Source: Christensenella sp. UBA7584 (GTDB lineage: Bacteria; Bacillota; Clostridia; Christensenellales; UBA1242). Taken from it: 64,000 nt of DNA. The stretch's first letter is position 1. Every line of letters begins with the position of its first letter. Below are positions 4,901 to 62,867 of this stretch, piece after piece. Location: positions 13,420 through 77,419 of the forward strand of contig DLKQ01000013.1 in the NCBI GenBank assembly GCA_002477805.1. Reading direction: 5' to 3'. The notes under the pieces were generated by a model. The model ran no database searches. It was not told the origin of the DNA and saw only the letters and a list, made by a program, of their open reading frames with translations. Position numbers and translations under genes: made by a program.

Positions 4901-5755
4901 TAAAGAATAATCATTGTAAATACTATTTGCGAGTGGATATTTTCCGAGTACAGCACAGTGTTTAACTTCAAGCCATTGCCCAACTGGTACTTCTTTTGTT
5001 TTTTCGTAAGGAAAAAGTCCCTTTCGCGAGCTGTAAGAAATTTTTATGCCAAACTTTTTCAAGCTTTCTATCAACTGGCCAACATCTTTGTATTTGGTTG
5101 AAATAGAACTCTTGAACTCAGTTTCCAACTCTTCAAGATTTTTTAATTTATGTTTTTGTGCATAGGCTAAAATTAACACCTTGTTGAGCTGAACGTGTTC
5201 GTTGGTTCGAGGTTCAATATTAACAGTGCTTTCATTTACGACATCAATTGTTACTGGAAAAAGAACAAGGGGTGCTTTTACTTCTATATCCTTGCCAATA
5301 AATCCTTGAACAAATGGGTATCCAACATAAAGTTCGTACCTACCTGTTTCCTTTTCAAACTCTTCTATTTCTCTTTTTAAACTTACAACTAGACTCACTT
5401 GAGACAAAATGGTGCGTTTAATTTCTTCTCGCTTTTTTCTTTCTAACTTCAAGCACTCACTACTTTTTTCCACCCCTTCCAAATTTTCTAGTTCTGCCTT
5501 TTGTTTTGTGTATTTTTGTTCAATACCCAAATTTTTGGAAATCCGTTCACTGCTATCCTTGCCAATAATATTAAAAGCATATTTGTTCCCTTTCCACAAA
5601 AAATCTACAAGCTCTTTGGTTGATTCATAATCACCCTCAAATAATCTGCCAATATCAAAACTATTTTTTCGACTAATTTTTTTGGAAAAAAGACTTCTGT
5701 TTTTTCCACTAATCTCTACCAATCTTTCTTTGTAATATGTGTAAATGCTTTTCAT
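1940..5755 (-). CDS. Stand-alone SF1B (Upf1/DNA2-like, AAA_11/AAA_12) helicase with a DUF4011-like N-terminus and a C-terminal DUF559/Vsr-type nuclease-like domain
   Basis: AAGGAG RBS. Walker A GPPGTGKSQT (nt 4709-4732). Also ILFDEASQ, VVAGDSKQLRPT, YHYRS, GIITFNAEQ, VQGDERD and NVAITRAK. The last ~110 aa (LGIECDYSAF...RDVFR...GWNIMRVWSRDY) look like a PD-(D/E)xK fold. Confidence 0.85.
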   Translation of the reverse strand: MKSIYTYYKERLVEISGKNRSLFSKKISRKNSFDIGRLFEGDYESTKELVDFLWKGNKYAFNIIGKDSSERISKNLGIEQKYTKQKAELENLEGVEKSSECLKLERKKREEIKRTILSQVSLVVSLKREIEEFEKETGRYELYVGYPFVQGFIGKDIEVKAPLVLFPVTIDVVNESTVNIEPRTNEHVQLNKVLILAYAQKHKLKNLEELETEFKSSISTKYKDVGQLIESLKKFGIKISYSSRKGLFPYEKTKEVPVGQWLEVKHCAVLGKYPLANSIYNDYSLLEKKRLTNDAIDELLYAKPVKASSNIDSRTYTVSSLDYAQQNAVECLNKSGNMVIYGPPGTGKSQTIVNIITDAIAKHKKVLVVSQKRAALDVVYNRLGDLNSKVMFLTDADKKKSAFYERVRTCHEQVINSNFFVAKEKYDETSEKLLNEENALKEISDVLFTPTEFGLSLGQMYASSTLIGKKSIEYVIYQNMLQNKKLLELNYSRLNESLRLIKEKNKAELYYKFVEAKKSNPFVGNIREDLEFHTINETKQKLSKILQNRVAPFDMSKYPNSRQFVAFFIDNKLKFDNIDSLVSFVGKTNYPKVYSSVRKSYVFLPTLPFKLHSKNKLENEIKQEFIKTMEEIKEYTLEYQFLQDVLTQNGYSMMIDNILNGNTQYPKYLLKALDNYVEFRDLSTNLNTLTEDEKTILKFAYKTSDTKLKYLETVNKIKNIRIYHEITALEDKFKSELSHILDYDNIKNRILSLKLDLNKISKEICLEQFTLDYQKYYQKSTDSKNYLYQISKTQNQWPIRKFMEVYGEYLYKLFPCWLLSPESVCTILPLVKNLFDVILFDEASQVFIENTLPVIYRGKNIVVAGDSKQLRPTAMFVKRFLGGDFDDTMDYSTQAALEVESLLDLAMTRYKSANLTYHYRSKNEELINFSNESFYEGKLQISPNITKNKNYKPIERIKVNGKWINRSNTAEANAVVEILKKIFATRKNNQSIGIITFNAEQESTIEDAIDKECSINPKFKDYILKEENRKENGEDISMFVKNLENVQGDERDIIIFSIGYARNELGRVVANFGPLSLEGGENRLNVAITRAKEKIYVVTSIEPEELNVDSTKNMGPKIFKNYLRYVRAVSSGNSVETEIILNQARIQTEQKPKVELGNIEADLKAELERLGYKVETNLGNTNYKISVAVYDKQLDRYLLGIECDYSAFLSSPSVLERDVFRPAFLKSRGWNIMRVWSRDYYLHKTKVLNSIVKEIGKAKIAYQKKSNKAKK

Positions 5756-5850
5756 CTTTCGCTCCTTTGACTAAAAATAATTATAGCAAAAACATATACA
5801 ACAATTCAATTGTTTTTACTAAATTTGTTTGAATAATTTTTGGTTAATCA

Positions 5851-5882
5851 AAAATAACACCAGATACCTGATGTTATTTTTA
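5851..5882. terminator. Hairpin terminator downstream of the GT2 gene
   Basis: AAAATAACACCAG-atac-CTGATGTTATTTT with one mismatch. A-run on one side and T-run on the other. Confidence 0.5.
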
Positions 5883-5999
5883 TAAAAAATTCCCTTAAAA
5901 TTCTACAAACAATTTTTGCGAAAATTTCTCATTTGTTTTAAATTTGTAGAATTTTTTATTTCACCCAGTAATCCTCTTATAGAGCAGTCTTTTTAAAAG

Positions 6000-8195
6000 T
6001 TATTTAGTTTTCTGACTTTTGCTCAGTTTTTTCTTTTTAAATTTGTTATTTGGCATTTTTAAAGTTTTACCTTTTACTGTTTTCTTTTTGTATTGTGGCC
6101 TACTTTCATTTACCAAACTATTGTCACCTTTATTTTCATTATCATCGTTTATTTCAGGCTGAGCATCGCTATAAACGTTTTTGCCTAAACTTTCATCACA
6201 AGAAGTGTTTGATTTAGATTTTTCGCTTTCAATACCGCTATTATTTAAAATGCATTCTTTTGTATCAGCTCTTTCTGTTTCACTATCTAAAATTTCGCTT
6301 GGTTGACTTTCTACCACATCGTCTTTAATTAAATCATCGCTAGTTTGAATGTTTTTATTAGCAATGTTTTCACAAGCAATATTTGTGTCTACACACGAAA
6401 TTGTTTTTGATTTTTTCTTGCCATAGTTAGAAAAATCACTTTCGCTGTCAAAAAGGTCACGAATTATAGTTTCTTGGAAAGCAATACTTTTTAAATCTAC
6501 ATTACTTTCTCCGCCACAAACAGCCACAGCCTTGTTAGCTTTTAGAGTATAAGCAAAAGTTGTGTTAATTTTTAAACTAACCATTGTTGTTTTTCGGTCT
6601 ATTTCCTTAGTCTGCTTTTCACTATATTTTTTGTTTGAAAAGAAAAGTAAAAAGAATGAGAGATAACCTGTAATAATTATCAAAATAACAGGGAACGGAC
6701 TTTTGCTGAAAATTAGCGAAACCGCAAGTAGAATTGATGAAAACAAAAATTCTTTCCATTGAAATAATAGTGCATAGCCTAAGTTAATTTTGTTTGAAGT
6801 TTTAGGGGTTACAATAAATTTTGCCTTCTTTCCGAAAAGCCCCAAAATTGCACTGATTAGTGAGGTTGTAAGCATAGAACCATACAAAATAATAACGCAC
6901 AAAAGATAAAATAGAGACCTGAAAATATTAATTCTAAACATCCAATAAAATACATCATTTAGCATTGGCGAGAAAAAGAATATTATCGTTGGAATTACCA
7001 TCCAGAGTACATAAACCTTACCCAAATCTAGTCCAAGAAGTGGTGCAAAAATGAGGTTTAGAAAAATGAAAAACGCAAAAATTGCAGTGAGTGGCAAATT
7101 GTATGTAAACAAAACAATATCCATTTTTTCATACCACTTCATTTTTGATTTGGCTATCTTTTTTGAATATCTTTTAATAAATTCCAAATTCCCTTGAGTC
7201 CACTTTGAATGCCTCTTTTTGAAAGCAACATAGTCAATAGGATATTCTTCCGAACACACAATATTTGGAGCAAAAGCAACATAGTATCCAGCACTGCGTG
7301 CTTCTATCGAAAGACAAAGGTCTTCAGCAACCAGGTTTGGAAAGCCACCAACTTTTTCATAACAATCTCTCTTTATCATTGCACCGTGACCAAGCATTGA
7401 TGAAAAACCATAAAAATGTTTCATAGTCTGATAAGTAGGCCAGTGTGAATTTACACCAATATGAAAGAGTTTCATAAAGAAATTTCGGTTTCTTGTTGAA
7501 ACGTGATTCGCTTGCACAACACCTACATTATCATAAGCGTAAAAATATTTTAACGACTCAACAACATAGTTTGGTGGTAAAATTTCATCACTATCAAGTA
7601 TAACAACAAAGTCATACCCCCCCCCACAATCTACAAGCTCGGACATTAGGTAATTGTTGATATTTCCAGCTTTAAAGCCTTTTCTATCCGCTCTGCGAAC
7701 AACTTCAACATTATACTTTGCCCCAAATTCGTCTACTTGTTTTTTGTAGTTTTCATCAGACGAATCATCAAGAATAACAGTTCGAACATTTTTGTATGTC
7801 TGTTGCATAGACCTTTCTAAACTGTGACCGTCAAAATCATTGCAAGTGCAGTATACCATAAGCACTTTGTCGTTTACTTTTGATACATCGGTATTAATAA
7901 CTTCTTCAAATCTTTTGTTAAGTTTTTTTCTAGCACACACGTACCAAATAACATAAATAAAATCTTTTACACCATTTAGCCAAAAGTATGAAATAAATAC
8001 CGCATTTAAAACTAGAAGTATTGTTGCAAACACTCGAAGAGTTGTTGTCTGCGAAACGTCATCTTTAAATGGAGTATCTATAAAACTTTTTACAAAGTAA
8101 TACCACAAAAATGCAATGAGAGCAGTCCAAATAACCAGCATAAGAAGATATAAAATAGGGCTCTTTTTCATTGTTTTCTTTTCTTTCGTTTCCAT
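6000..8195 (-). CDS. Membrane-embedded processive family-2 glycosyltransferase (cellulose-synthase-like) with a ~230-aa low-complexity C-terminal tail
   Basis: Start moved to METKEKK, which has a GGGGGAAATT RBS. Motifs ILDDSSD, GFKAGNINNYL, LDSDE, VAEDLCLS and RHSKWTQGN (a QxxRW-type motif). Multiple TM helices flank the catalytic domain. Confidence 0.85.
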   Translation of the reverse strand: METKEKKTMKKSPILYLLMLVIWTALIAFLWYYFVKSFIDTPFKDDVSQTTTLRVFATILLVLNAVFISYFWLNGVKDFIYVIWYVCARKKLNKRFEEVINTDVSKVNDKVLMVYCTCNDFDGHSLERSMQQTYKNVRTVILDDSSDENYKKQVDEFGAKYNVEVVRRADRKGFKAGNINNYLMSELVDCGGGYDFVVILDSDEILPPNYVVESLKYFYAYDNVGVVQANHVSTRNRNFFMKLFHIGVNSHWPTYQTMKHFYGFSSMLGHGAMIKRDCYEKVGGFPNLVAEDLCLSIEARSAGYYVAFAPNIVCSEEYPIDYVAFKKRHSKWTQGNLEFIKRYSKKIAKSKMKWYEKMDIVLFTYNLPLTAIFAFFIFLNLIFAPLLGLDLGKVYVLWMVIPTIIFFFSPMLNDVFYWMFRINIFRSLFYLLCVIILYGSMLTTSLISAILGLFGKKAKFIVTPKTSNKINLGYALLFQWKEFLFSSILLAVSLIFSKSPFPVILIIITGYLSFFLLFFSNKKYSEKQTKEIDRKTTMVSLKINTTFAYTLKANKAVAVCGGESNVDLKSIAFQETIIRDLFDSESDFSNYGKKKSKTISCVDTNIACENIANKNIQTSDDLIKDDVVESQPSEILDSETERADTKECILNNSGIESEKSKSNTSCDESLGKNVYSDAQPEINDDNENKGDNSLVNESRPQYKKKTVKGKTLKMPNNKFKKKKLSKSQKTK

Positions 8196-8476: not shown

Positions 8477-9496
8477 TTATGAGATTTTCATAACTGTGAG
8501 CGTTGCACCTGGCCCACCATTTGCGTCAATTCTTTTTGCATTGATTACAACTGGTACAAGTGTGAGTGAACTTCCAGCCTGCAAATTTAGCACAAATTGT
8601 CCGCTTGAAGTTGATGATTCGCTAAGCGGTCTTGCTGTGTTGTTATCCCTCACGCCATTAATTGCTAGCGCAATTCCATCGGTACCAGCAGCGCCAGAAG
8701 CCCTATTGACATAATAAGCCACAAAGTAAGTCCCAGCATCTGGAACTGTTATTGAATTTTCAGTAATTATCATTCTGTTATTTGTCAATGTTCTAAAAAG
8801 TGAAATAGGCACACCTGTCGAAATGTCCTGCCCAGCCATATTCAAAATGGTTGCATTAATATTTTGCTCCACGCCTTTTGCCCCAGTTGCACCGCGTGGA
8901 ATATAAAAATTAAAAATTGCATTTTGCTCCGAACCAACGTTGGTTACACTAGCTTCTTCTTCGGGTTCTACCACACTAACATCGCCCACCATAATTGTTG
9001 CCGAAGCCCCGTTTTGCCCAGTCGCTCCACGAGGAATAGAAAAATCAAGAACCAATTTTTCTGCATCACCACTATTTGCAACAACAGCTTTTTCACCTGG
9101 TTCAAGAGTCGTTGTAGTGCCCACACTCACAGAGGTAGTTTTCCCAACTTCCCCTTTGTCTCCTTTTTCCCCCTTTTGACCCACATCGCCTTTTTCACCT
9201 TTTTGCCCAACTTCTCCTTTCTCACCTTTTTCACCTTTTGGAATGACAAAATTGAAATAGGCTCTTTCACCTGTTTGCCTTAACTCCACTTTTGCTGGCG
9301 TGTTAGGAAGTCCTGTTGTGGTCGAATCAACAAAAACCTGCACTACTGAGCCTGTTGCTCCTGTTGCACCTGTTTTACCTCTAGCACCTGTTGCACCTTT
9401 TATTATATGAAAAGGTTGACCTCCTAAATTGGAACCATTCACAACAAAATGTGCTAAATTGTTTCCATTTTGTCCGTAACCATTGTTATATGTCAT
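8477..9496 (-). CDS. Collagen-like triple-helix repeat protein with a BclA/C1q-like C-terminal domain (exosporium or surface filament type)
   Basis: G-X-Y runs GATGARGKTGATGATG (aa 34-49) and GEKGEKGEVGQKGEKGDVGQKGEKGDKGEVG (aa 88-118, nt 9143-9235). Three F-x-F-x-IP-[KR]-G junction motifs. A C-terminal ~130-aa beta-rich domain. AAGGAG RBS. Confidence 0.8.
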   Translation of the reverse strand: MTYNNGYGQNGNNLAHFVVNGSNLGGQPFHIIKGATGARGKTGATGATGSVVQVFVDSTTTGLPNTPAKVELRQTGERAYFNFVIPKGEKGEKGEVGQKGEKGDVGQKGEKGDKGEVGKTTSVSVGTTTTLEPGEKAVVANSGDAEKLVLDFSIPRGATGQNGASATIMVGDVSVVEPEEEASVTNVGSEQNAIFNFYIPRGATGAKGVEQNINATILNMAGQDISTGVPISLFRTLTNNRMIITENSITVPDAGTYFVAYYVNRASGAAGTDGIALAINGVRDNNTARPLSESSTSSGQFVLNLQAGSSLTLVPVVINAKRIDANGGPGATLTVMKIS

Positions 9497-12560: not shown

Positions 12561-12752
12561 AAAAACTCCTTAAAACTCTATCTAGTATAACATAAAAATG
12601 AAGATTTTTCAATAAAATAGACTCATTTGACCAAGAATTTGTTCGCATTTTTAACTTTAAAAAGCATAATTTTACTCTTCTATTAATATAGTTCACAGTA
12701 CTGTTAATTGATTTACTATTTCAAAACCATACCCAACAAAAACTTTTCTTAT

Positions 12753-12896
12753 ACTAAAATTGTTTGTCGATTTGTTTTTAATTTAATTTTCTCATTTAGC
12801 TTTCTCATTTTACATTTATTAGGTTCAAAACAAATGTACATTAAAAGAAAAAATCAAATCTACTCATCGGAAAACCCAAACAAAGCCACCAGATAG
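12753..12896 (+). repeat. Intergenic repeat family, copy A (~140 nt)
   Basis: Starts ACTAAAATTG and ends CCAGATAG. Its first 38 nt match copy B at 34 of 38 positions. Followed 19 nt later by a terminator hairpin. Confidence 0.7.
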
Positions 12897-12914
12897 TCTT
12901 GTGGTTTTATATTA

Positions 12915-12943
12915 CAAAAAAAGACCAAAATCGGTCTTTTTAA
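12915..12943. terminator. Bidirectional intrinsic terminator (ends rplA; also closes repeat A on the plus strand)
   Basis: AAAAAAAGACC-aaaatc-GGTCTTTTT. Confidence 0.7.
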
Positions 12944-12955
12944 AAATCATTATAC

Positions 12956-22242: not shown

Positions 22243-22776
22243 ATGAATATTTCGTGGTCAGCTTGGGGAACACCTATAGAACTTATTTCAAAACAACTTG
22301 AAGAAATTTTTTATGAAAAACCAATAATTTTGTGTCTTGGAAGCGACAAAGTTTTAGAAGATTGTCTTGGCCCTCTTTGTGGAACAATGCTTTCAAAACT
22401 TGGGTATCAGGGTTTTGTTTATGGAACTTTGGAAGCTCCTATTTTTTGCCAAAATGTTGAATGTGCATTTAATTTTGTAAAAGCTGTTCACCCAAATCGA
22501 AAAATTTTAGTTATTGACGCGAGTACAACAAAAGATTCAGATAGGCTGGGAAAAATTGTGCTCGCAAAAAACTATCAACCATTTAATTTAAATTTGAAAA
22601 ATGTTAATTTAAAAGCAGATTGGTTTTTGTTTGGAGTTTGTAGTACAAATCAAGGTTTGAGTCTTGCTGGTTCTAGAATGGCAATCGTTCAAAAAATTGC
22701 AGACACTATTTGCAGTGCAATAATAAAAACTCAAAACGCGTGCCTATTTGAGAATAGAACCGCACAATTTGTTTAA
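22243..22776 (+). CDS. yyaC: Putative sporulation protein YyaC (DUF1256, GPR-protease-like fold)
   Basis: ILCLGSDKVLEDCLGPLCGTML and ILVIDAS match, from memory, the YyaC family signature. AAGGAG RBS. Confidence 0.7.
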   Translation: MNISWSAWGTPIELISKQLEEIFYEKPIILCLGSDKVLEDCLGPLCGTMLSKLGYQGFVYGTLEAPIFCQNVECAFNFVKAVHPNRKILVIDASTTKDSDRLGKIVLAKNYQPFNLNLKNVNLKADWFLFGVCSTNQGLSLAGSRMAIVQKIADTICSAIIKTQNACLFENRTAQFV

Positions 22777-22977
22777 TGTAAACCAAAAAGAAAACATTTT
22801 TATTTGAATTATTTTAGAAATGCTTAGATAAAACTATTTTTAAACTAAGCATTTGTAATTATTGGGATTGTTGATAACGCAAATTTAATAACAGATAGGA
22901 AAAGCCTATGCGTAACAATTTTTTGTTTTTTGTTTGCTTAACATTTTATGCTTAGCTAAAAACAATTTTTTTGATTA

Positions 22978-23117
22978 ACTAAAATACTAATCTTGAAGAT
23001 TTTTAATTTTGGGCTTATAAATTTTTTTATAATTTTTTAAATAAAATTCCAGCTAAAGAGAAAATTAATTTTACTCAATCAGTAAACCAAAAGAAATCCA
23101 CTCAGACTACCTATTAG
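22978..23117 (+). repeat. Intergenic repeat family, copy C (~140 nt, most diverged)
   Basis: Starts ACTAAAATAC and ends CCTATTAG. The core GAGAAAATTAATTTTACTCAATCAGTAAACC aligns with copy B's GAGAAAATTAAATCTATTTATCAGTAAACC. A terminator follows 16 nt downstream. Confidence 0.6.
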
Positions 23118-23132
23118 CTTTATATAATACAA

Positions 23133-23165
23133 AAAAGGATTAGAACTGAGTTCTAACCCTTTTTT
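23133..23165. terminator. Bidirectional intrinsic terminator (ends the giant gene; closes repeat C)
   Basis: AAAAGGaTTAGAAC-tga-GTTCTAAcCCTTTT. Confidence 0.65.
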
Positions 23166-23369: not shown

Positions 23370-26300
23370 TTACTGTTTAGACATTCCAGCAGGTTGTTGT
23401 TCAAGCACATACGCGTATCCACTACCCTGCTGTTTAAAGTCTACAATACCGCGATACAAACTTGATTTTTCGCTTTCAGTCATATCTGATAAGTTTTTAT
23501 CGCAAAGTTTGTATGTTGTACCCTCTCGTATGTAATAATTTAGGTACTCTCGTGGGTCAGAAATTTGACCTGAAACTTGTTCGAAATAAATTGTAGGTGT
23601 CACTTTAGGAAGTCCTACATTGTTGTCATTACAACCAACCAATATTCCAACACCAACAAAATATGTTGTACCACTAGAAATTGTTGGAATTTCATCAATG
23701 CGGTTATTGTAATTTGTATTATGATACCACATATACCAAGTTTGTTTTGGCGACTTGAAGTCAGTATAATCATTTGTGTGTCCATCAGTGCCATACTGAT
23801 AAGTTTTCGCTCCAAAATATGAAAGTGTCAAAACCTGGTCAGTGTTATCACGTACGAATGTAACAGTAGCACTACTCATCTCACCTTTCATCTCACCTTT
23901 ATTTTCACTTAACCCAACAAAGCCACCGATAAGTATTCCACCCGCAATTTGCGATTTGTGGCTAATGCTAAATTTTGTAGTTATGTTCCCTCTGTTAATT
24001 CCAACTGCGCCACCTATTGCATATGAACTAACTGAGCTATTTCCAACTTTTCCGTTTACCGCACCACTGAATGCACTTGTTCCGCTAAATGTTCCTTCGT
24101 TGAGACCAACAATTCCGCCAAGAATTCCTTGTGCAATAATGGTGTTTCCAGCACCGACACTGTTTGTTCCAGTCAAGGAAGACATATTGTTCCCAACAAG
24201 ACCTCCGACATTTACACCAGTGGATACAATTACGTTTGAAGTAGCCTCTCCACCGTCTGTCTTGAGGGCTTCAAGGACTACATTTTGAGTAATACCGCCT
24301 GTACTATTGAGACCAACAATTCCACCGATATTATCTTTCCCTTGAATTTTGTCCGCACTTGAAATATTTACATTACAGCCTGAAATTGTTCCTTGGTTTT
24401 GTCCAACAAGACCTCCGAGAACGCTTCCTGCTTCACCGCTTTCACTAGTTGCGTTTATTGTTGTTGCATAAACTCTACTATTTGTAATTTCTGAAGTGTT
24501 TAGTCCAACCAAACCACCAAAGTTCATTTCTGCGCTTAAATTTGTTTCTTGAGTAATCGTGTTTCCCGACACAAAAGCTCCGTCAATAGTGCCAGTGTTT
24601 TTACCTACAAATCCACCAACGCTAAGCCGTCCACCGAGCGATGAAGAAGTGATAACACTCTTTGTAACTGTTCCCGACAGTTTTGCACTATTAATTCCAA
24701 CAAATCCACCGATATTTTCATTACCACTAATTGTAATAGCATTTACTATTGGAGTACTTTGAGTTAATGTAATATTTTCTTTGTTTTGTCCAATAGCACC
24801 ACCAACATTTGTACCACCCGTAATAGTGATGCCTGTAATCAAATTTTCACCGTCCAATTCCAAAATTTGACCATTATTTAAACCAACAATTCCACCAACA
24901 TTGACAGAATTTTCTGCATTAATTTCAAGTTTTCCCGTAACTTGATAGCCCGAAATTTTACCTTCGTTAAATCCAACTACTGTACCAATACTTGTACCTG
25001 TTAAATTCCACCTCTTTGAAGTTTCGTAACCAAGTTTAACTCTTACAATGCTTGCGTTTTTCTCATTATAACCTGCAACCATTCCGATGTTTTTGAGAGC
25101 ATTACTTGTTAATACACCACTTAGAGTAATGTCACTAATAATTGCTTTGTTTGTTCCAACAAAACCTATATTTGAGTCATTTTCTGAAGCGGTTATTTTT
25201 ACGTCTTTCATATTTATGTTCGAAATCTCACCTGAGTTAACTCCAATCAAGCCAACATTTGTGTGACTGCCCAGTGCTGAAGTATCCAGTTTGGTTAGTT
25301 CAGAGCCCTGAGTTCTACTTTCAAATGTAACATCTTTTATCGTTGACTTGTTTTCAGCAAGTAAAAGTCCTGCTGGAGTACTATCTGAATCTGTTTTGGT
25401 ATAAGTTACTTTTATTGTTTGCCCATCAAGCGCTTTGACTAGCAAGTTTTGAATAACAGCATCTGTTTCATTGATTGATGTAATTACTCCAACATCTTGC
25501 TCTGCTGAAAGTGTAAGCACACCTACTACTTGAGATGTATTGGAAGCAGTGCCAACATCTAGATTTCCAATTTCTTGAAGGTTGATACCAGCGACACCAC
25601 CCACAAAACGCTTTCCAAACAAAGTTGAGCTATTAATTACAAATTTCTGAACTTTTCCATTATTCTTTCCGACAATTCCACCGACATATTCTGAAACACT
25701 TGCCGAAGCCACTGGCTGACCGACCGAATCTAGCGTTGCGATGATAATGTCGCTTGCTTCTGCCGAAATAACACCTGTTTCCACGAGCCCAGTTGATTCA
25801 CTTTGTGCTGTGTCATTTAGACCTACAATTCCACCAACATTTGTGCTAACGCTATTTATTGTAACACCGCTCACTGCGGTTTTAATTGTGCCTAGGTTGT
25901 AACCAGCAAATCCACCAATATTACTATCTGTTTGTGTGGTGTTAATAATAATTCTATTATCTTCACCACCATTATACATTATGCTATCTAGCGTTTTGAG
26001 GTTGTAACCAACAATTCCACCAATATTTTTGCTTTGAGCTGTTGAATTAATGTTAATATTTGCCTTAAATGATTTTACTATGCTTGTAGAAGTTATTTGA
26101 ACTGACGAACTTGCACTAACACCAATAATTCCACCTATATTTTCGCTTTCGCCATTAATTTGTAGTGAAATTGCTCCAATTGTACTTTCGGCTGTATGAA
26201 CTTTGATTTGTCCTTCGCCCGAAGCAGAACCGATAATTCCACCAAGATTTTTAACAGCCTCATTTGCAGTAATGTTAATTGTTCCCGCAAGGTGAAGGGC

Positions 26301-29300
26301 GTCGCCAATAGGACTTTCCTCTCCTTGTGTGCTACCCGTAATTACACCGACAGCTCCACCAACATTAGCACTTTCGCTTTGAAGAGTTAGATTTAGTGCA
26401 CCTGATGACCTAATAATGACTTCACCCGTTGCAACACCTTTTCCGATAATTCCTCCAAGATTTTCACAGCTATCTGCAACAATAATTTCCACTTCGTCCG
26501 TAATTGTAATCTTGCTAAACCTATTGTCTACCGAACCAACAACGCCTCCTATTGCATTAATGTCTTTACCCTTTTTAATCACAAGATTTTTAATTTTGTT
26601 TGTAGAAATAATTCCGCCTTTTAACTCTACGACCTCGTTATTCTCATTATCAATATGTGTTGTAACATAACCACTGTTTCGACCAGCGACACCTCCAACT
26701 GTTCCTCCGTCAGAGATAATTGAAACATTTTCAATACTGATTTCTTCACAAATACCTTGGTTGCGACCTATAACTGTTCCAACACTTCCGTTTATAGAAC
26801 TAATTGAACTATTTGAAACTGTGATGTTTTTAATTGTACCCAAGTTTTCACCCGCAACAATTCCGCCAACGTATTCGCTAACAAGGCTAACTTGGTTAAA
26901 TTTTAAGTTTTTGATTGTTCCATTAAATACGCTTATAAGTCCAGTGTTTTCTAGTCCACTGACATCATCAATGATAAAGTTGTAAATTGTGTTATTGTTT
27001 CCGTTTATGTCTAGTTTTATTTCTTGATTTCCGCTTGTTAAGTCAGGAACTTTGTATCCAAGCATATTAATACTTCCTGAAAGGTTAATGTGATAAGTAA
27101 AGCCATTTCCGCCACTTCGAGCAAAATATTGAAGGATTGCTGAATATTGTTTTATATCATTTATCTCAAGAGTAACGTCCAAGCCACTGGTACTAATCTC
27201 ACCTGTTGTTCCGTTTACATCTAAGGTTGCCAATGTTGGAACAAAACATCTAAGTGCAATATTTCCTGTAGTTAAATGATTTGTTTCGCCTGGGTTATTT
27301 GGTCTTAGTGCCCAAGTATGAACAAAGTCAAAGCTATCAGACATTGCAACAATATTATCATAATTAACCGTTCTTTTAGCTGGGTCACTTGAACCCTGTC
27401 CACTTGTATCAATAACATAATTTTCAGTTACACAGTCGGTAATTTGACCGCCACCCGAATTCGCAAACATTTCAATTTCACCTTGTTTTGTAATATAAAC
27501 TTTAGAAATTGTACCTGCGTTTATGTTTGCAACCAAACCACTTGTTGCAGTGCTATCTTTAAATCCAAGCTGTGTAATCTGACCACTATTCGTTCCCACA
27601 AAAGCTGAAGTGCTACCCAAAATGTAATGTCCATCTCCGTCAATTGTGCCTTTAAAGTCTAGCATCGAAAGTGACAAATCTTGAATATTGCTACTTGCCT
27701 CTAAGATAGTACTAATTAAGCTATAATCCATATCTCTAATTAGCCTATATTTATAAACTCCTGCTAAACTTAAGTTGGTTGAACTTGTCCTAAGCGCCCA
27801 AACAAGTTGACTTTCATTATTAATTAAGAATGGACTATCTTTTCCACTAGAATCACGAGTTCCATTTCCTGTTTCAATCATATTTGTTTCAGTTGAAAGG
27901 TAAGGAAGCCCATAGTTCAAGTAATCACGACTGAGCCAAATCCCTGGTGTCATTGAGCCATTTGTTTTTTCGTTTAAAACAACGCCTGTTGTAATGTTGT
28001 ATGTTTGCCCATATTCGTTTGCACCATAGCGTTGCTCATAAACGCTAAACTCGTCACCAATAAGTGTATCTTTCTTTTGAATTGGTTTGTTAATTTTTCC
28101 GATGTAATAAATATTTTTACACAGGCTATCACTACCAGACCAATCACCCAAAATAGCTCCGCCACTACCTTTAATTGTGGCTGATGAATAAGCGTTTAAT
28201 AGGTTAGCCTGTCCAGAAATGCTTGTTTCTAGCGGAATTGCAACATTTTTAACCACTTTTCCAATCAAACCACCAGCATAAGCCTTTTCAGTAGCATAAT
28301 TGTTAATTGTTCCACTAAAGTAACAATCTTTAAGTGTGTAGTTTTGATTATTTTCGTTATTGTAACCAACCAGTCCACCAACTGCAAAGTAGTTTTGGTC
28401 ACTTCCTGAAAAGCTAATGTCAACTTTTGAACTTGAAGCAATGATTTGTCCAGAGTTTACACCAACAAGCCCGCCGACTATGTTTCCTATTTGCTCTGTA
28501 GTAATAATTGTGATTAGACCTTTTGTACTAGAACCAAAAATTACACCTTGCTCACTTAGATTTGCGGTAATAATACCTATCCTAGTTTGTTTTAGTTCAC
28601 CACTTGCACTTAGTCCAATATAAATTGTAGAAGTTGCATTTACGCCCGAAATTGCACTTTGTCCGATTATCTCACCAAAAAGTCCCATATCCGAAACAGC
28701 TTGGCTACTTCCATAAATAGAATCATAGCTCGTAGTTGTAATACTTCGTCCAGTACCATTATAAAAGCCTTGAAGTATCACATTTTGAGTTAGTGGAACA
28801 TCTTGCAAGTTTGCACTTTGAATATACCACTTGTAATTTTCTTTTGTCCAACCGTTTGCCCAAGCTATGTCTTCAGTATAACTTGAAGGCATTGCCATTG
28901 CTAAAAATTGACCTACGTTACTGATTTGAACCGGCTTGATTTTTGTTCCATAAAGAGCATTTTCAAAAAGTTCGACATATTTCGAGTAAAACTGCGTTCT
29001 TTCGGCAGTTGGCTCAAATTGTATTCTTGGATACTTGTCTGAACCAAATTTGAAAATTGAATATTGGTCGTTTGCGTCTAACAGTTCAAAACTAGTTGAT
29101 GATGATGAATCATAATACAAAAAGCTTGTACTAGTTTGTCCACATTTTGCCTTGTCTGATGCTGTCAGACTCAAATACTTGTCGAAATACACATTTTTAA
29201 CATTATCATTATCTCTACTATTGAAATTCGTTGGTGTTTGATAAGCAAAACCGTCAATATTTGTAAGGAGTGAATTGTTAAATATACTTGCAAAAGAAAC

Positions 29301-32300
29301 ATCGTTACGCATTATCAAATTGTTTGAATTTACACCAAGGCTACCCGCAAAACCACCAATTTGTTGATTTTCAGTTCCGCTTGATAATGCTGTCCAGTTG
29401 TTTTTCTCGTTTGAAAGTCGCATATTTGCAAAAGTAATACAATTGTCAATTTGTCCGTTAATTCTACCAGCAAAACCTCCAATTGAAAGGTCTTTTTCAT
29501 TTGATTCAATTGTTAAATCAACATCACCAAACATCATTACATTTGTGGTCACTGAATTTGTAATTTCTCCAGCAAAACCACCAACAACCGCTTTGTGCTT
29601 TGCTCCTATTACATTCACTTTTGCGTTTGCAAACGCTGTCTCTATATTAACATTACTTGCATAACCCACAAAGCTACCAACATTCATTGGCGAAATTCGG
29701 TCAATATCAATATTCCCGACAAAGTAATCGCCTTCTATTAACATATTTCTTCCAACACTTGCTTCTACAAAACCGATACTTCCACCAACATAAACTTCTG
29801 GATTTAAAATCGGTTCACATTCTAGTTTTGTTTTTGAAGCATTAAGTGTACAGTTGTAATCTTCTAGCACAAATTTTGTTCCACTCGCAACAAGTGTTCC
29901 ATCATCTGTATAAACATTACCAAAAGCGTCAATAGTATAAACCATTCCATTTAACACAAATTGATTATTTTCTATACTTAAAGTTTGTTTACCCGCATTA
30001 ACTACAGTGAGTTTTGCTTCAACATTGCTATTTAGGATAGAACCTTTTTCTTTGGCGAGCAGTGTATAACTACCAACAAGTCCACCAATATATTTTGCAC
30101 TAGATTTGAGGATATTTTCCTTTTTCCAAGTTTGTAAAAGTGTATTATTTTGAATTTCAAAAGATTTTCTGCCAATATTAAATGTTTGGTATGTAACAGA
30201 ACCTGACTCACTTGATATGGTAACAGTTTTTATGTCTGCAACCTTTGTGCCACCACTTAAAAGACTATTTCCACTTATATTATAACTCTTTCCATCAATA
30301 GTAAATTCTGAGCCAAGTGATTCTACTTCAACACGACTAAAGTCTTCTAGAACTTGTACATTTGAAATTACTGAATCCTCAGCGTAACCAACCATAATAC
30401 CTGCATAACTTGTAGCATTGAGAGCAGATGGCACCCAACTGAAGTTTACGCCCGAAACTACTACATCTTTAATTGTTGCATTTTTGATGTAAGCAAAAAG
30501 TCCAATTCCTGATGCGTTGTATGTTGAGTCGGTTGGCATTGTAATATTATAAAGAACGTGAGTGGTTGTAACCCCATCTTGTGTTGATGTACCTGTAAAT
30601 GAACCAGTGAAAGGTTTTGACGCTGAACCAATTGGAGAATACTCTACACCAGTAAAGTCAAGGTCAGCCATTAGAACATAATTTGATTTGAGCGAATTTT
30701 TTATATTTTGATAATCTTCAACTGTCCAAATCTCAATTACATCAGGATTTGGAAGAGGTTTGTAAATTGGCATACCTGCAAAGTCATAATTTGTGTTCTT
30801 GTAGAAAAGTGAATCATCACTTAATGTAAATACTGTTCCATAGTTGTAAACAAGCCAATTTTCGAACACACGGTCAGCTTGCTTTAGAAGCCTTGTCTTT
30901 AAGTCTGGTTCGTCTTGCTCTTTTACTTGCGTGCTTGTGTTTTGATAGCTGTATGTGTACGCTTCAAACCTTGTAAGTCCTGTTGCAACATCACTCGTTC
31001 CTAAGCCAGCACCAACCGCTTTTATTTCTAGTCCATTTGAAGCTTTTTTCGTTTTATCTGGTTGATAATTGTAAATTTCTTTTACATAAAAGTTTTCTTC
31101 ACCAGAAAGTCCAATACCATTACCTTCTGCAACGAGTAACTCGTATTCTTCGTTTGAAATTGTGCTGTGCATTTCGCTGATTTTATCGCTGACAATTTCA
31201 CCGATAAGACCACCAAACTTTCCGTTTTCTTTAATGAGTGTTAACTTGTCATAATCCGAAACAGACCAGTTGTTCATCGCAACAAGGTGCGAAATTGTTG
31301 TGTGAATTTCATCATTTTTCATTCCGTTATAGACTGATTTGTTTGGAACAATTTCGATTGGGAATGGGTCAGAAATATCAGATGAGACATCTCCCATTCC
31401 GCAAACAAGGCCTATCGCTCCACCTAGAGTTCCAGACTTGGTTGAAAGCACACTACCTGTCACATAACAAGTATCAATTTCACCACCAACTGAAATTCCA
31501 ACAAGTCCTCCCGCAACTTTTGCTGTACTATTTGCCACTTTTACTTTGTTAAAGCTGTTTGCAATAATCCCTGATTGCATATCATAAATGTACCCAATAT
31601 TAATTCCAACAAGTCCACCTATTGCCTTACTATTATATTGAAACATATTTATGTTTGCATTAGCCGAAGTAAATCCAACGCCTGTCGACTTGTCCATTTC
31701 GTCTTGAACTTCTTCATCATAAACAAGCCTTGCGTAATTTAATACACCGTGGTTTTCACCAACAATTCCACCAGCATATCTAACTGCTTTGATAATGCTA
31801 CCTACTTCTACAACTTTTTTTATGTTGTTTGCAAAACTTGTAGCACCTAATAAGCCAACCACACCGCCAGCGGTTGTTCCGATAACTTCACTTTCGCCAC
31901 TCACTTTAATGTTTGAAATATGAGCATCGTTAAAGTCCTCGCGGGTTATGTTTAACTTTTCGGCAACATAACTCTTTAAATCAACAACACCAAACACTGC
32001 ACCAGCGTAGCAAAGCTGACTATCTGGATTACCAGAGTTTGCAATTTTGTAAAGCCTCAAAAGGTCTGCATTGTAAATTAGTTTTACTGTTTGCGAATTT
32101 CCAAAAACAGCAGTAACTGAAATTGAACTATCGACATTACTAATTCGTGATGTACCCGTAACTTTTCCAATTACACCACCAACAATATTCTTTCCGATTA
32201 CAATCGAATTTGTACTTTTTGCGTAAACATTAATATTATTTATGCTAACATTTTCCACTTCTCCAGCAAGTGCACCAACTTTTGTAACAAGAGCTGCTGT

Positions 32301-35300
32301 AACATTGTTTACACTTAAATCCAAATTTTGTACTGAAACAAAGTTGTTTACTATTCCATTTGTGTCATCTATTTTAGAGAAAAGTCCAAATCGGTCGGCT
32401 GAGCCACTTGAAATATCCAAATTCTTTATTTCAAAACCATTTCCTTCAAAATTTCCGCTAAATGTCTGCTTGCTTATGGTTGAAAAGTCAAGTCCAAGTG
32501 CGGTAAGTTCTGAAAGGTCAATGTCACTAACAAGTCTATACCACTCAGTGATTTTTCCGTGACACTCAAAGTCTGATTTCATAAGTGTGTAAAGCGTCTC
32601 AGCACTATCGATAAGGTTTGGGCTCACAACTGCCACATTTGCATCTTCATCAAGTATTAAATACTCATTGATTGCATAAATTTTGTCATCTTTCGTATAA
32701 ACTCCACGAGTGTATGTATACATATCTTCGCCAGACTCATTTTTGGTATACTCAACTGTATCCCAATTTTCAACTGCAATCAGGTCTGCCGAAACAAGCC
32801 TTGGACCCATAAAAAAGTATAATGTGTTTGCTTCTTTAAGCTTTGGTAAAAAATTGTTCATATTGAAATAAGCATTATCATCATTAACAAAAGTCCAAAC
32901 TGAAGCAAATTCTTCTCCTTTGAATCCGTCCACATATTTGCGACTTGTGCTATATGTATCCCAATACGAAATTTGTTCATTGTCTCGATTTATAAACTGC
33001 TCCATTGTTCGTTCTTCAATTCCAAGTGCCTCCGAAAGTTTGATTCCTTCACTTCCAAAACCAGCATCGTAGAAGAAGCAATTTTCAATCGCGTCTTGTC
33101 TAGGGTTCTCATTGTAAAGTGAAGAATAATCTGCTGTTGGCCCAATAAATGGCGTGTGCGCTTTATTTCCTTGTTCGCTTGCTCCAATATTTGGAACATA
33201 TGAGACACTATAACAGCGTTTGATTGTTCCGCTAGACTTGTTTGCATAAACAAATCCGCCCGAAAGTGAACTTGAATCTAACGAAAGTGCAATTCCTGCA
33301 AAGCTGTCCGAAATTTTTCCATAGTTTTCATATACAAATCCACCAGTATTAACTGTTGAAATGATTTGAACAGTTCGACCCTGTATTCCGATAGAACTAT
33401 CAACTTCATAAATTTGTCTACCATTTGAAGTATAGAATTTGACAAAAGCTCCTCCAGCATAACTAGTTGTAATTTGCGAGCCAGAACTATTAAATGCAAC
33501 AAATCCCGCACTTGCACCTGAAAGATTTGATAGTGCTTGGTTTGTTATTTGGATATTATCACTAAAGCTTGATGCAATTTTGTGATTATTTTGACTAACA
33601 AATCCAGCAACGTATCCACGTGCAATCAAATTCAAATCTTTGACTCTACTATTTGAAATACTTGCATTATTTACTGCAACAAGTCCTGCAATATTAAATA
33701 CATCAGAAGTACTACCCGTAGATGAAATTTGAATTGTACCCCTATTTCCAAATTCATCACGAGCAATAACTTGGCAGTTTGTAACTGTTCCGTTATTTAT
33801 TCCAGCAAGTCCACCAAAATTTATATAAGTACTTGCTGATAAGTCTAGTTCGGTGGTAATATATTGCACTGTTAAGTTTTTTATTAATGTATCCTCTCCA
33901 ATCTCAGCGAACAGACCATAATTTGCCACACTAGTTTCACTACCAACTGTGCTAGTGTTAAATCTTGAAAGTTTTATTGTCTTTCCGTTTCCATCAAGGC
34001 TGGCAATATTAACATCAAGTGGCTCCCACAAAACACTTGTTGCATCAATGTCCGCCATTAATCGGTAGTCTCTACCCTCAGTCATATTCAATAAATCTGT
34101 TAAGTTTTCAATAGGAATTGGGCTATCTCTTGATGTCTGCTGTGTAAATTTGAGCGTAAATACTTGTCTTGGAACGAAAAAGTCATTTCCATTAAGTGTT
34201 GTAAAGCCCATATTCAAAACACTAGACAAATTAAACGAAAAGTCTATGTCATTAAACACAACTTTGAGACCATTAAAGTTTTGTTTGATTGGACAGAAAT
34301 ACCAACCATTGTTGTCACCATCTTGAATCACAAGCCTGATATAAAATGTATTTTGAATTACAGAATAAACCGAAGTTGAACCAGTATCATTATTTTTATC
34401 AAAAGGTGAAACGCTGTCACTGAGTTTTGCTGTCACTGCATAGTAATAATCTGCACCAACAGAACCAGCTTTTTTGATTTGCTTGATTGAAGTTTCTTCC
34501 GATGCTGATTCTGACACCTTTTCCAGCATAGACCAAATTTCTACTTCACCACTATTTAAAGCTTTTAAAAAGCTTTCCAAGTTCTGCTTTGCTTTTGCGT
34601 GAGTTGGGTTAAAGTTGATTTTTTCATTATCAATGCCAATAGTAATTTTGAACATTGCATTTTTGTAATATGGTTTGTCCATAACTGCATCTTTAACATC
34701 GCTCACAACAAGCGACCCATTCTTGAGAACAAAATCAGTTGTGGTGAAAATCATCTGCCTAGTAATTGTTCTACGATAACCATTTACATATTTTACACCT
34801 TGAACTTGCACTGTAAACTGTGCACCAATTTGGACTGTACTTGGAACTACAACATAGTAAATTCCCGCAGTGTGCTCAATTTGAGCCAAGCCTTCTGTTT
34901 GGTCGTCAATGATTGAAACGCTAACTTCAGATTCAAACTCACCTTGCTGTGTTATTTTCAAAATGTTTTTGTTTGCACCATTTGTAACAGTGAGTTTTTC
35001 GCCCAAAGCATTGAGTTTATCACTTGAACCACCTGTCCCAACTGCAACAAACGCTTGTGGAAGATTCGATTCAAGGTTTTTTGCTGTGTCATACGAAAGA
35101 GTTATGTTCGCACTGCTATCAACGGCGAGGTCGAAGGTAAACACCTTGTCTTCACTTCCGCTTTTTGAAATGGTAACTGTGATTAAAAAGCTTTGCACAG
35201 TTGTTGACTGCTTTGCAATCAGTGTTTGAAGCCAAATTGTACCGTCAAAAGAGCCATCACTATTTGTCACGCAAGCTGGCATAATTCCATTTTCAATATA

Positions 35301-38300
35301 AACTACACCATCACTAAAAATAAAGTATTTTGTTGTATCTACTCCATTTTGCGAAGTTGTTTCGGCGACTCTTTGCTGGAATGTTACCCTATCACCATTT
35401 ACAGTGTTTGACTCAACTTTTATGCTATCGAAAACAGCGTAATCTGGCGAAACATTAATTCTAAGCAGTCCCATTTCTCCCACCAAAATTGTATCAGTTG
35501 GAATTGCTCCCGCGTTTACCAGATAATTTCCTGGGAGATTAAGTTCACCTTCAAGCTGTGCATCAGCATAGTGATGAATTGAAACAGTTTGTACTTCTTT
35601 TGGCAAAATTTGAAAATAATATTCCTTTGTAAGTACTCTCGAATTTGAAACAAATTCGTAGTTTGAAACAACTATTTTAAAAGTTTTTGCTTGTTTGAAA
35701 CTTTGCTTAAACGAATTTTGAACACCAAACACAATATTTTCTGTAATATTATCGCCCGACAAACTAATATCTGATACTAGCAAGAAATATTTGTCGTTTG
35801 CATAATCCGAAAGTTCTATTTGTGTTGTTTGAGTGTTTGGGTCAAAAAGTTTAGAGGCAACTAAATTATCTTCCTCAAAAACCTCAATTTTACTTCCAAA
35901 CTGCTGGTCAGTTGGTGAATCACTCACAAGCGTTACACCAAGTTCAACATCTTCCGAAATTTCAAGTTCTACTGGGTTGGTTTCAGTTCCAGTTTTGTCT
36001 ATTTGGATTTGTGACGCACCTTCGTAAATTACAAGTTTGATACTAACACTTTGATTCCAACGATACGAAACAAAGTTTTCAGTCTCGCTTGTAATAACTT
36101 GCCCTTCAACCTTGCCAAGCTGACCTTTGAGATATGGAACCATCGTGAGCTGGAGATTTAGGTTTCGACTTTTTGCAATAAGGCTTGCAGTACTTGTGTT
36201 TTCGACATACATATAAACTTCACTAAGTATCCCAGTAATGCGACCTTGCGAACTTATCACCTGCGAAACTTGTGCATAATTTAACCCACCAACACGGAGT
36301 ACAACATAGTACCTTCCGTCACGCTTGTCAAGTAACACGTCAGCATTTGAGTAAAAAATTGAAAAGGCTTTTTTTGCTTTTAAAAGTAGATTTGTAATAT
36401 CGCTCTCTTCGATGTCTTCTAGTTTTAATATATAAATTTGCGAACCATAAAATGCAAAATAGTTTGTCATATTTAGAATAGCTTTTCTATCAAGTGTAAC
36501 TTGCTTTTTGCTTGTTTCTACATTAAAAGTTGTTTTGTTTACATTACACCAAACATCATCAGAAACGCTAAAGACATAGCTTGTTCCGTTATCTACAACT
36601 TTTGCATTAGATGAAAGATTGAAGGCAAATTGGAACAAGTATTCCATTAATACTAAGTCACCATTAGCAAGTTTTACAATACCCGAAATTACATCAGAAA
36701 AATTCATTTGTTTTGTCTTAAACTCATCTTCACCGAAAGTAGCGTATCCGTCTTCAAGCACAAAAGCCACACCTGTTCCAAGCCCTTCCGCTACCAGCGG
36801 TGTTGTCACATATTCCCCTGAAATTCGCGAAATATTAACATAATTAATTAGCCAATCTTCATTTTGACCTGTTTGAAGAGTAACTGTGTCGCCACTAACA
36901 AAGTTAAATGTCTGACCTGGAAGTTCGTCCTCTTTGTCTTTGAGTGCTCCGCTTTGGTAGAATTTTACATCGCTGTAACCCTGAACAACTTGAATACCAA
37001 CAATATCAAAAAGTCCGCTACTATATTTTGACCTAACCGTGATAAAAGTACTCCCAGTGCCAACAATATTTAGTGTTGCCGAAGCCACTGTATTACCATT
37101 TGAAATATAAATTACTCCAAGGTTACTACTTTCAATTGTAACCATTGACGCAAGTGAAAAGTCTGCATCAAATATACTACCAAGCCTAATTGATTTTGAA
37201 GCAAGCCCGTCTAACATAATGATAACATTTTTTGAATTTGTAGATTCAAAAACATTTGTAGGGAGCACATCTTTTACACTCAGTGAAAGCGTTGTTTGCA
37301 CATCTGGATAAAGCACAACATCATCATATTTAGGAAGAGGATACTCAAACCTTTTTAAAGCGTCAAACGCCCAGTAGTTTGTAAAGTCAAAGTTATTTGA
37401 TGTAAATGTTTGCTCCAATTTTAATTCGTTTTCTGATTTGTATGTTACACCGCTACTGGTTTCTACATTTTTGTTTGAATCATCGTTTTGTTTTAAAAGC
37501 ACATTGTTATATATTACAGTTGCAACAGAAGTTTTAGAAACACAAGCCACACCAGGATGCTCCATAATACTGTAACTAGTATTTATGGTAATACTGCCCT
37601 TTACATTAGAGGCAAAGAGTGCACCTTTGCCGTTTTCTAACACTTCAAGTAATCCTGCGGTAAATGTGTTAGTTATTGTAGTTGAATCGCTCGAAGTACC
37701 TACCTCACCGACAAGTCCTCCAACCGTTTTTGCCTTGATTTTCCCATAGAAATACGAGGAAGAAATTGTCACGCCAAACGGAGCACTTCCAACAAGTCCA
37801 CCCGCTGTTTCTGTACTATAAATTTCACTAACGTTAGCTGATTGTGTAAAACTCAAAACATAAGAGGCAATTATGCTCGCGCCTTCGTAACGCCCAACAA
37901 GGCCACCAACACAGCAAAAAGCCACTGAGCCATCATTAACAACTTCACTTGAAAGCGAAGGTTTTTCGGCATCAAAAATTTCGTAATAACAATTTCTGAT
38001 TATATTTGAACTATAACCTACGATTCCACCAACAGCAAAAGCGTTTGCAATTTGTGTGCTACTAGAGCAGTTGAATACCATACCTGAGGTATGAGCAACA
38101 ATTCCTCCAGCATAGGTACACCCGTTTTCGGCATTAAGCCTAATTTCACCACTTGAAGTAATGTTTGAAAGTTGTCCGCTACTAATTCCAACTACTCCAC
38201 CAATCTTTGAATTTACTGGAAAACTGTTTTTAGTACTCGATGTGATAGTAGTCTTGGCACTGAGTCCACCTTTTACAAGCGTTGCACTATTTTGCGCAAT

Positions 38301-51700: not shown

Positions 51701-51872
51701 TAATAGGAAGAACATAAAATTTCTTCCTAAGTTATTTTTTTCTAGCCCCCTACGGGAGGTAACTTCAATATACTGGTATTTTCTATAACAGGTAAAACCC
51801 TTTTGTTACCTCAACACGAAATCGTGTTTTTTAACATTGCGTTTTTTATTAATTTTTATCGCTTGTTTTCTA

Positions 51873-52301
51873 TTAATTTTTATCTTTCTCTTGGTTTTCT
51901 AATTTTTGTTCTTTTACCAATTCACTCTTTTTTTTCTCTTTTCCTTTTTCTACTTTTTGGTCTTTTTTCTTTTTAAATGAGTGAAAAAGGTGGTTTACTC
52001 CTGCAACTTCATCAACTGGTACGCTAAATGTTAGCCCCTTTCCTTCTGTAGTGAGGTTAGAAGTTTTAACTATTTCTCTCATCACAAGTTTGCGAATACT
52101 CTTTTTTACCAAAATCAAAACCACTTCTTTTTCGGGCTGAATAGGTATTCCCATAATACTTTGGTTTTCGTGCACACCAGTACCTCGTGCCTTAATGATT
52201 GTAGCACCTTCTGCACCTGCCACCTTACTTGCTTCTATAACTTTTTCTGAAAATCCTACATCAACAACTGTGATTATTAATGAAAAACTTTGTCTAATCA
52301 T
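51873..52301 (-). CDS. P-II-like signal-transduction protein with a Lys-rich C-terminal tail
   Basis: LIITVVDVGFSEKVIEASKVAGAEGATIIKARGTG shows the P-II fold pattern. GGAGAAAAAGG RBS. Confidence 0.6.
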   Translation of the reverse strand: MIRQSFSLIITVVDVGFSEKVIEASKVAGAEGATIIKARGTGVHENQSIMGIPIQPEKEVVLILVKKSIRKLVMREIVKTSNLTTEGKGLTFSVPVDEVAGVNHLFHSFKKKKDQKVEKGKEKKKSELVKEQKLENQEKDKN

Positions 52302-54300: not shown

Positions 54301-54460
54301 CACATTCCCCCTTTTTTCTTCTTGGAACTCATTTTTCATTATGATTATAGGACTAAATTGAGACTTATGTCAATCAAAATTACTCAAATTTTTGACAAAG
54401 TTTTAAAATATTTTATTGATAAAAAATTTCCATTATGATATAATAAAAAAGGTGAAAATT

Positions 54461-55780: not shown

Positions 55781-55784
55781 GAAA

Positions 55785-57644: not shown

Positions 57645-57787
57645 TAAAACGAGATTTAGTCAAAAAGAGCAAGCTATAAATAGATTAGCAGATAATTAAG
57701 ATAATTAATGAATGAAAAATTTACTGAATAAAAAATACAAGCAGCGATTCAATACTAAAAACATTACTATTATTACTATTTTTTAAA

Positions 57788-57817
57788 CAAAAACTTTCTT
57801 GAAGAGAAAGTTTTTTT
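57788..57817 (+). terminator. Intrinsic terminator after mnmG
   Basis: AAACTTTCT-tgaag-AGAAAGTTTTTTT. Confidence 0.7.
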
Positions 57818-60049: not shown

Positions 60050-60103
60050 AAAAAATAAAATTAACACATAAAATACAGAATAAAAAAAGAAAATGTTAAT
60101 TTT

Positions 60104-62855: not shown

Positions 62856-62867
62856 TGAAAACTCAAA

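Follow-up and report, generated by a model that had tools for sequence, protein, structure and literature searches.

Terminator-linked intergenic repeats in an uncultured Clostridia genome as probable relics of an IS200-group insertion sequence

What are the short repeats that stand beside transcription terminators at three intergenic sites in this Christensenella genome? Within the window, by which we mean the whole 64-kb stretch of DNA analysed here (33.5% G+C genome, standard genetic code), copy A lies between argS and rplA (both on the minus strand), copy B between parB (plus) and jag (minus), and copy C between a YyaC-like gene (plus) and an ORF of 6225 aa (minus). The initial annotation had described these flanking pairs correctly, and had noted that all three copies begin with ACTAAAAT, lie on a common strand and are followed by a hairpin and a T/A-run 13-19 nt past the end that it assigned to each. 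Sequence reading, blastn and nhmmer bear out the homology of the copies, their common strand and the hairpin plus T-run at each. It had further proposed that the repeats are either a multi-copy small RNA (sRNA) gene or a terminator-associated MITE/REP-like element, with the plus strand as the meaningful one, and it is on these points that our reading differs. Three public contigs on which these genes also occur (L001, L004, L005) match the window at 100% identity and show no polymorphism.

The relationship between the copies is evident from direct comparison. A and B align over 132 nt in blastn (E 2.7e-14) and B and C over a 42-nt core, GAGAAAATTAA(A/T)T(C/T)TA..ATCAGTAAACC (E 4.5e-5), while A and C match through an inverted fragment only. 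An nhmmer model made exclusively from foreign full-length copies of the insertion sequence (IS) described below found B at E 2e-33, A at E 7e-20 and C at E 0.011, all on the minus strand. Given these blastn and nhmmer values, the similarity is not low-complexity A/T sequence, an outcome that the initial annotation had named as refuting its own claim. Alone, C is marginal against the foreign-only model, and we accept it as a probable copy mainly because it resembles B and stands after a terminator. Neither blastn nor nhmmer found further left-end copies in the window. Likewise, the Rfam scan that had been called for found no known RNA family, either in the whole window at gathering thresholds or in each copy, and ARAGORN found no tRNA or tmRNA in the window.

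The nature of the repeats is best seen in relatives. A degenerate core-motif pattern, run against 185,579 reference genomes (one per species, GTDB set), found two homologous loci, L002 in a 'Christensenella sp.' MAG and L003 in an uncultured Eubacteriales bin. Both hold the entire repeat at high identity with homology carrying on at both sides, and beyond ACTAAAAT each has an opposite-strand ORF with a product starting MKNKPENNFSLAHTTWNCKYHIVFAPKYRRK. That product matches Pfam Y1_Tnp (PF01797, 'Transposase IS200 like') at E 9.7e-40 and the solved transposases of IS200, ISHp608/IS608 and ISDra2 at E 1e-24 to 3e-15; its family counts more than 7,980 database proteins at E <= 1e-40, of which the named ones are called IS200/IS605 family transposase. 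At both loci, the strand of the repeat that is plus in the window runs antisense to the start of an IS200-type transposase gene (tnpA). The tnpA of L003 (2135-2600, minus) is seemingly interrupted by a stop after '...KVFFN', and this copy may be inactive. Relaxed core-motif scans gave six hits in JGI metagenome contigs and two in IMG/VR, those inspected all being chance matches with no flanking homology. When the locus orthologous to that of copy A was sought, the nearest ArgS relatives were 64-65% identical, with no rplA-argS adjacency and no relic. Such distant ArgS homologues indicate that the lineage is poorly sampled and isolated within Clostridia.

The intact element of L002 is 696 bp long (5427-6122). 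It runs from GTAATATAAAA through a left-end (LE) hairpin CCACCAGAtagTCTGGTGG (nt 11-31; CCACCAGA..TCTGGTGG), a long stem-loop (about nt 57-121), tnpA (nt 120-584, encoding a Y1/HUH transposase of 153-154 aa) and a right-end (RE) hairpin CCACCAGGttcaCTGGTGG to ATTTTTATT. The two end hairpins are almost identical, reading CCACC(A/G)GAtagTC(T/C)GGTGG at the LE and CCACCAGGt(t/c/g)caCTGGTGG at the RE across intact copies, and there are no terminal inverted repeats. The long stem-loop pairs the Shine-Dalgarno GGAG and reaches the ATG. This arrangement corresponds to that published for Salmonella IS200 (PMC4513863), and in line with it an intact left end matches the Rfam model STnc490 over its full length, below threshold. 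In minimum free energy (MFE) folding, six intact copies, drawn from two subfamilies, all form the LE hairpin and the Shine-Dalgarno stem-loop, with a conserved apical loop AGCCUAAC. The sequestering stem covaries between the subfamilies (AUUUAAUUUUCUC/GAGAAAAUUAAAU versus AAAAUUUCCUCCUGUG/CACAGGAGGAAAUUUU), with many double substitutions. One subfamily is A/T-rich (L002, L014) and the other richer in G+C (L035, L041); the LE and RE hairpins and GGTTTACCGATGAGT are common to both, and the sequestering stems (L014-L050) are wholly rewritten in sequence with the pairing still complete. When the whole IS was compared with plasmids by BLAST, only the tnpA body (nt 139-578) matched annotated IS200 elements, and the ends did not. 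The many metagenome insertion sites with identical elements imply that the intact IS has probably been mobile recently, which does not extend to the relics in the window.

Against this element, relic A (12750-12915, minus strand) aligns by Smith-Waterman with nt 1 to ~152 at ~80% identity, and comprises the LE, the tnpA 5'UTR and codons 1-11. The LE hairpin (12886-12904) is kept with one mismatch as CCACCAGA-tag-TCTTGTGG, the counterpart of CCACCAGAtagTCTGGTGG in intact copies, and together with the following TTTTAT it looks terminator-like on the plus strand. The long stem-loop (12780-12860) is weakened, as RNAfold of A and of intact copies indicates, and bears a 13-nt tandem duplication (12788-12800 / 12801-12813). 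What had been taken for a ~28-nt insertion in A is, by alignment, this duplication plus a 7-nt stretch deleted from B, the former Shine-Dalgarno AAGGAGA. The start codon has changed from ATG to ATT (12780-12782), and the eleven codons (12750-12782) still read IKNKSTNNFSI in frame (tblastn with the L002 TnpA).

Relic B (62581-62864, minus) consists of IS nt 36-281 at 62581-62822 and a degraded outer 40 nt, corresponding to the LE hairpin region, at 62823-62864; the hairpin itself is lost. Its homology extends ~135 nt further 5' than had been drawn, to 62581, into a tnpA pseudogene (62599-62744, minus) that spans codons 1-49 and is broken by a frameshift and two in-frame stops. The pseudogene nevertheless translates to a recognisable TnpA N-terminus (tblastn in two frames, E 9.5e-10 and 1e-3). 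Here the start codon has become ATA (62742-62744) and codons 1-11 read IKYKSENNFSS. Short ORFs had been said to lie in different frames in different copies; this holds for the plus strand, but on the minus strand A and B keep these tnpA codons in frame.

Relic C (22972-23130, minus) is the most decayed copy, aligning with IS nt 1 to ~155 at ~62% identity with gaps; both hairpins are largely gone, that of the LE being degenerate. Predicted stability falls from MFE values of -38 to -50 kcal/mol for intact left ends to -29 for A, -20 for B and -16 for C. As to the boundaries of the copies, homology in A and C extends past the 3' ends first assigned, to 12915 and 23130, up against the T-run of the terminator. 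A fourth fragment, relic D (51774-51845, minus), derives from the right-end side (IS nt 598-671; nhmmer E 1e-4) and has a Smith-Waterman score of 65.5, against 32.2 +/- 4.9 for shuffles with a maximum of 47.5. It retains an internal CACGATTTCGTG palindrome and GGGTTTTACC(C/T)GTTATA with the right-end hairpin mostly lost, and lies directly downstream of a 142-aa ORF (51873-52301).

We consider it very likely that A, B and C, together with fragment D, are decayed fragments of a tnpA-only IS of the IS200 group (IS200/IS605 family) with the tnpA sense on the minus strand. The 140-nt unit of the initial annotation is the reverse complement of the LE, the 5'UTR and tnpA codons 1-11, so that the meaningful strand is the minus strand and not the plus strand. 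Conservation at the RNA level, which had been suspected, is real; it is a property of the transposon rather than of an sRNA. The copies in the window are dead: none has an intact tnpA or an adjoining right end, start codons have mutated, the reading frame of B is broken by stops and a frameshift, and the hairpins are eroding. Tblastn and profile searches found no intact tnpA or right-end hairpin within the 64-kb window, nor does it hold an intact IS copy, and the parent element in this genome is unseen there. Most likely the relics have no present function, except possibly that of reinforcing termination at these sites.

Under this reading, the terminators belong to the host. Relic A adjoins the intrinsic terminator of rplA (AAAAAGACCgattttGGTCTTTTTTT, 12916-12946, minus; rplA stop at 12956), relic B that downstream of jag (AAAAAGAAAGAAATtttatATTTCTTTCTTTTT plus a T-run, 62868-62906, minus; stop at 62970) and relic C that downstream of the 6225-aa ORF (AAAGGGTTAGAACtcaGTTCTAATCCTTTTTT, 23131-23165, minus; stop at 23370). 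Each serves the minus-strand gene upstream of it (that of rplA comes 13 nt past the stop), and each relic has the orientation of that gene. The terminators are therefore not parts of the repeated element but host sequences used as a transposon target, and the near-constant distance from repeat to terminator arises because the transposon targets terminators, not because both belong to one transcription unit.

Intact copies elsewhere are found in the same setting. Metagenome contigs encoding four TnpA variants provided 27 distinct left flanks, representing about 26 independent sites. In all 27, by strict scan and by eye, the element start (GTAA...) directly follows a T-run preceded by a hairpin. 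The strict scan, which allowed loops of up to 12 nt and demanded two or more G-C pairs and five or more T, passed 22 of the 27, the remaining five being long-loop or bulged hairpins recognised by eye; as controls, 22 right flanks gave one pass and 326 TTTTT|G sites of the window gave 31. A T-rich run ending in TT stands immediately 5' of GTAA... in the 27 left flanks and in A and C, the element end is always ...GGATTTTTATT, and right flanks are unrelated to left flanks. Insertion at these 27 sites and at A and C is thus 3' of a short specific target, without target-site duplication. At L015 and L023 the same terminator is occupied, with slightly different T-run junctions.

The pattern visible at the sites is that the IS inserts directly behind the T-run of an intrinsic terminator, oriented like the gene that ends there, and from it we infer a mechanism. 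In IS608, the tetranucleotide AAAG on the 5' side of the LE hairpin foot pairs with the target TTAC (PMC5027513). By analogy, the AAAA 5' of the LE hairpin in the Clostridia IS200 subfamily would act as a guide for insertion at TTTT in the single-stranded lagging-strand template. The neighbouring hairpin may also contribute to target choice, or may simply mark a 'safe haven' where insertion does no harm. Plus-strand GC skew is negative over 1-54 kb, which would make the tnpA-sense strand the lagging-strand template, the orientation reported for the IS200/IS605 family (PMC5027513). The uniform orientation of the relics would be consistent with this family bias and proves nothing, three copies (four with D) being too few for statistics.

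A published survey reports that sequences resembling terminators are enriched directly upstream of ISs, above all in IS200/IS605 (PMC13548323). In the relics' own IS200 subfamily, which is abundant in gut Clostridia, a terminator and T-run are present at every site examined (about 26 independent sites and the three in the window), giving sequence-level support to that genome-wide statistic. A concrete mechanism is also suggested, namely a putative AAAA guide pairing with TTTT beside a hairpin.

The strongest alternative starts from the same left end read on the other strand. The relics could be domesticated antisense sRNA genes, each specifying an art200-like plus-strand RNA of ~135 nt that would run from a -10 box through the complement of the Shine-Dalgarno stem-loop to the LE hairpin and a U-run, and would repress tnpA of active IS200 copies in trans or have host targets. 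There is precedent in Salmonella IS200 (707 bp; terminator hairpin, nt 12-34; Shine-Dalgarno-sequestering stem-loop, nt 69-138), where the antisense RNA art200, formerly STnc490, lies opposite the 5'UTR (PMC4513863). An intact LE (L031) matches the corresponding Rfam model RF01405 (STnc490) over its full length at 35.3 bits (E 3.2e-5), below the gathering score of 56 bits. On the antisense strand, TTGCAA-17 nt-TAAACT is present in all intact copies of both subfamilies, including the fixed Ser-Leu codons AGT-TTA, and UUUUAU comes after the LE hairpin in the plus-strand reading. B preserves the apical loop TTAGGCTCAA, and A nearly does so.

In A and C, moreover, what remains is precisely the putative antisense unit, starting in the 3' half of the -10 box and ending with the LE hairpin; both lose homology at one IS position (~nt 152), which is unexpected under random decay. 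We have no explanation for this shared end inside the -10 box, and estimate the probability of its arising by chance at ~1-3%.

However, the features that such an RNA would need are disappearing from the relics. A and C no longer have the antisense -35 box, B (TGAACT) and C (TTAACT) have a substitution at the invariant A2 of the -10 box, and promoter-like sites near the copies are no commoner than in shuffled sequence and lie at a variable distance of 12-34 nt. The hairpins are eroding, as the fall in folding energy given above indicates; B lacks the LE hairpin and with it a terminator, and a terminator-like hairpin is found in A only. None of A, B and C matches STnc490 even at E <= 10. With 20-40% divergence from intact elements, extended antisense pairing would be poor. 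We therefore regard domesticated sRNA genes as an unlikely explanation, and the narrower idea that solo IS200 left ends are retained as complete antisense units, serving as trans-acting IS200 repressors or new regulatory RNAs, as very unlikely. The multi-copy sRNA gene of the initial annotation, with no Rfam match, no convincing promoter and decaying structures, is accordingly without support in that form.

A further possibility is that the copies are non-autonomous members of the IS200/IS605 family, of the PATE/MITE kind, mobilised in trans by a TnpA encoded elsewhere. The copies are several, short and alike in orientation, each lies at the terminator T-run that the family prefers, and A and C have similar boundaries, all of which would suit such elements. 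Yet mobility in this family needs both LE and RE hairpins, and no RE hairpin or terminal sequence adjoins A, B or C; the sole RE-like fragment, relic D at 51774-51845, is without a hairpin and at least 11 kb from any LE copy. The copies are also 60-80% identical rather than near-identical, and B, having tnpA coding remnants, derives from a full-length IS. This explanation is thus extremely doubtful. The suggestion of a terminator-associated MITE/REP-like element was right in that the repeats are transposon-derived and linked to terminators, through the insertion site, but they are neither MITE/PATE nor REP. A chance resemblance of A/T-rich DNA beside terminators, to which the 33.5% G+C of the genome and the weak similarity of C (matched to A in blastn only via the inverted fragment) might lend itself, is negligible in probability and excluded for A and B, which match each other at E 2.7e-14 and the foreign-organism model at E 7e-20 and 2e-33, with B translating to a recognisable TnpA N-terminus.

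Other candidates were also rejected. Short ORFs are not frame-conserved on either strand save for the tnpA N-terminal remnant, which leaves no small protein or toxin. Inspection of the flanks rejects a reading of the repeat ends as terminal inverted repeats or target duplications. For an argS T-box leader on the minus strand there is no Rfam match, and the IS relic explains the sequence.

The surroundings of the relics have features of their own. The block mnmE-mnmG-rsmG-parA-parB (plus, 54416-62387) converges on jag-yidC-rnpA-rpmH (minus, 62970-63449; L004 gene calls), and the GC skew changes sign near 54 kb. In Bacillus, the genes of both blocks generally lie on one strand. The converging blocks and the skew flip suggest an inversion beside the origin region with relic B at the junction. 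Between rsmG and parA there is a 1.57-kb ORF-free, very A/T-rich spacer (58925-60496; 27-29% G+C in the covering 4-kb windows), in which the perfect palindrome GTTTCGTACGAAAC occurs twice (59503-59519 and 60035-60048). The palindromes resemble parS half-sites with a different centre, and we presume that they may be ParB/Noc-type binding sites. The region 23370-42047 (minus) is occupied by the single 6225-aa ORF, which at ~36% G+C is richer than its surroundings. A collagen-like protein with a BclA_C domain, of the exosporium type, is encoded at 8477-9496 (minus; L001 4532-5551), and the YyaC-like spore protease at 22243-22776. Together, the BclA_C collagen-like protein and the YyaC-like protease indicate a spore-forming organism.

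Identified as transposon fragments, the relics are four old IS200 insertion scars in the genome of an uncultured, spore-forming member of the Clostridia. They offer a cautionary case, in that hairpin-rich, terminator-linked repeats with no Rfam hit proved to be the ends of dead transposons that had been read from the wrong strand, and recognising them as such averts a false sRNA annotation.

Several known systems share features with these repeats. Like PATEs/MITEs and REP/RAYT elements, they are short, non-coding, hairpin-bearing, multi-copy, intergenic and related to a Y1 transposase. PATEs, however, keep both LE and RE, whereas the copies in the window have one end only, and REPs are arrayed palindromes of 20-40 nt with a RAYT gene, neither of which is found here. 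A preference for terminators is also known outside the family. Bacterial class C group II introns also settle just behind intrinsic terminator hairpins, where they disrupt no gene; these retroelements have a ribozyme and reverse transcriptase of their own, and no sequence or mechanism in common with IS200-type ISs.

IS608 of Helicobacter pylori and ISDra2 of Deinococcus, the mechanistic models of 'peel and paste' single-strand transposition, are closer. Their TnpA proteins are homologous (PDB 2A6M, 2VHG and 2XM3; E 3e-21 to 4e-17), and they share with the element described here subterminal hairpins at both ends and insertion 3' of a specific sequence with no target duplication. They prefer the lagging-strand template (PMC5027513). 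Both carry tnpB as well, which is lacking here, and their targets are TTAC (IS608) and TTGAT (ISDra2), as opposed to a T-run ending in TT next to a hairpin.

The closest likeness is to IS200 of Salmonella and E. coli and IS1541 of Yersinia, which resemble the intact element in having ~700 bp, a single tnpA (Y1/HUH) and no terminal inverted repeats. With Salmonella IS200 in particular it has in common a left-end terminator hairpin (nt 12-34 in IS200), a Shine-Dalgarno-sequestering stem-loop and, as a candidate, an antisense RNA opposite the 5'UTR. At the DNA level, its tnpA shares ~70% identity with genes annotated as IS200-family tnpA on plasmids of Clostridium, Fusobacterium and Staphylococcus, and matches at 60-80% were also numerous among plasmids from Escherichia, Yersinia and Salmonella. 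It differs from IS200 and IS1541 in end sequences that are specific to the Clostridia subfamily, and the window holds dead fragments only. Insertion after the T-run of a terminator is documented here for the Clostridia subfamily. The relics are thus fragments, rather than functional members, of a well-known IS family.
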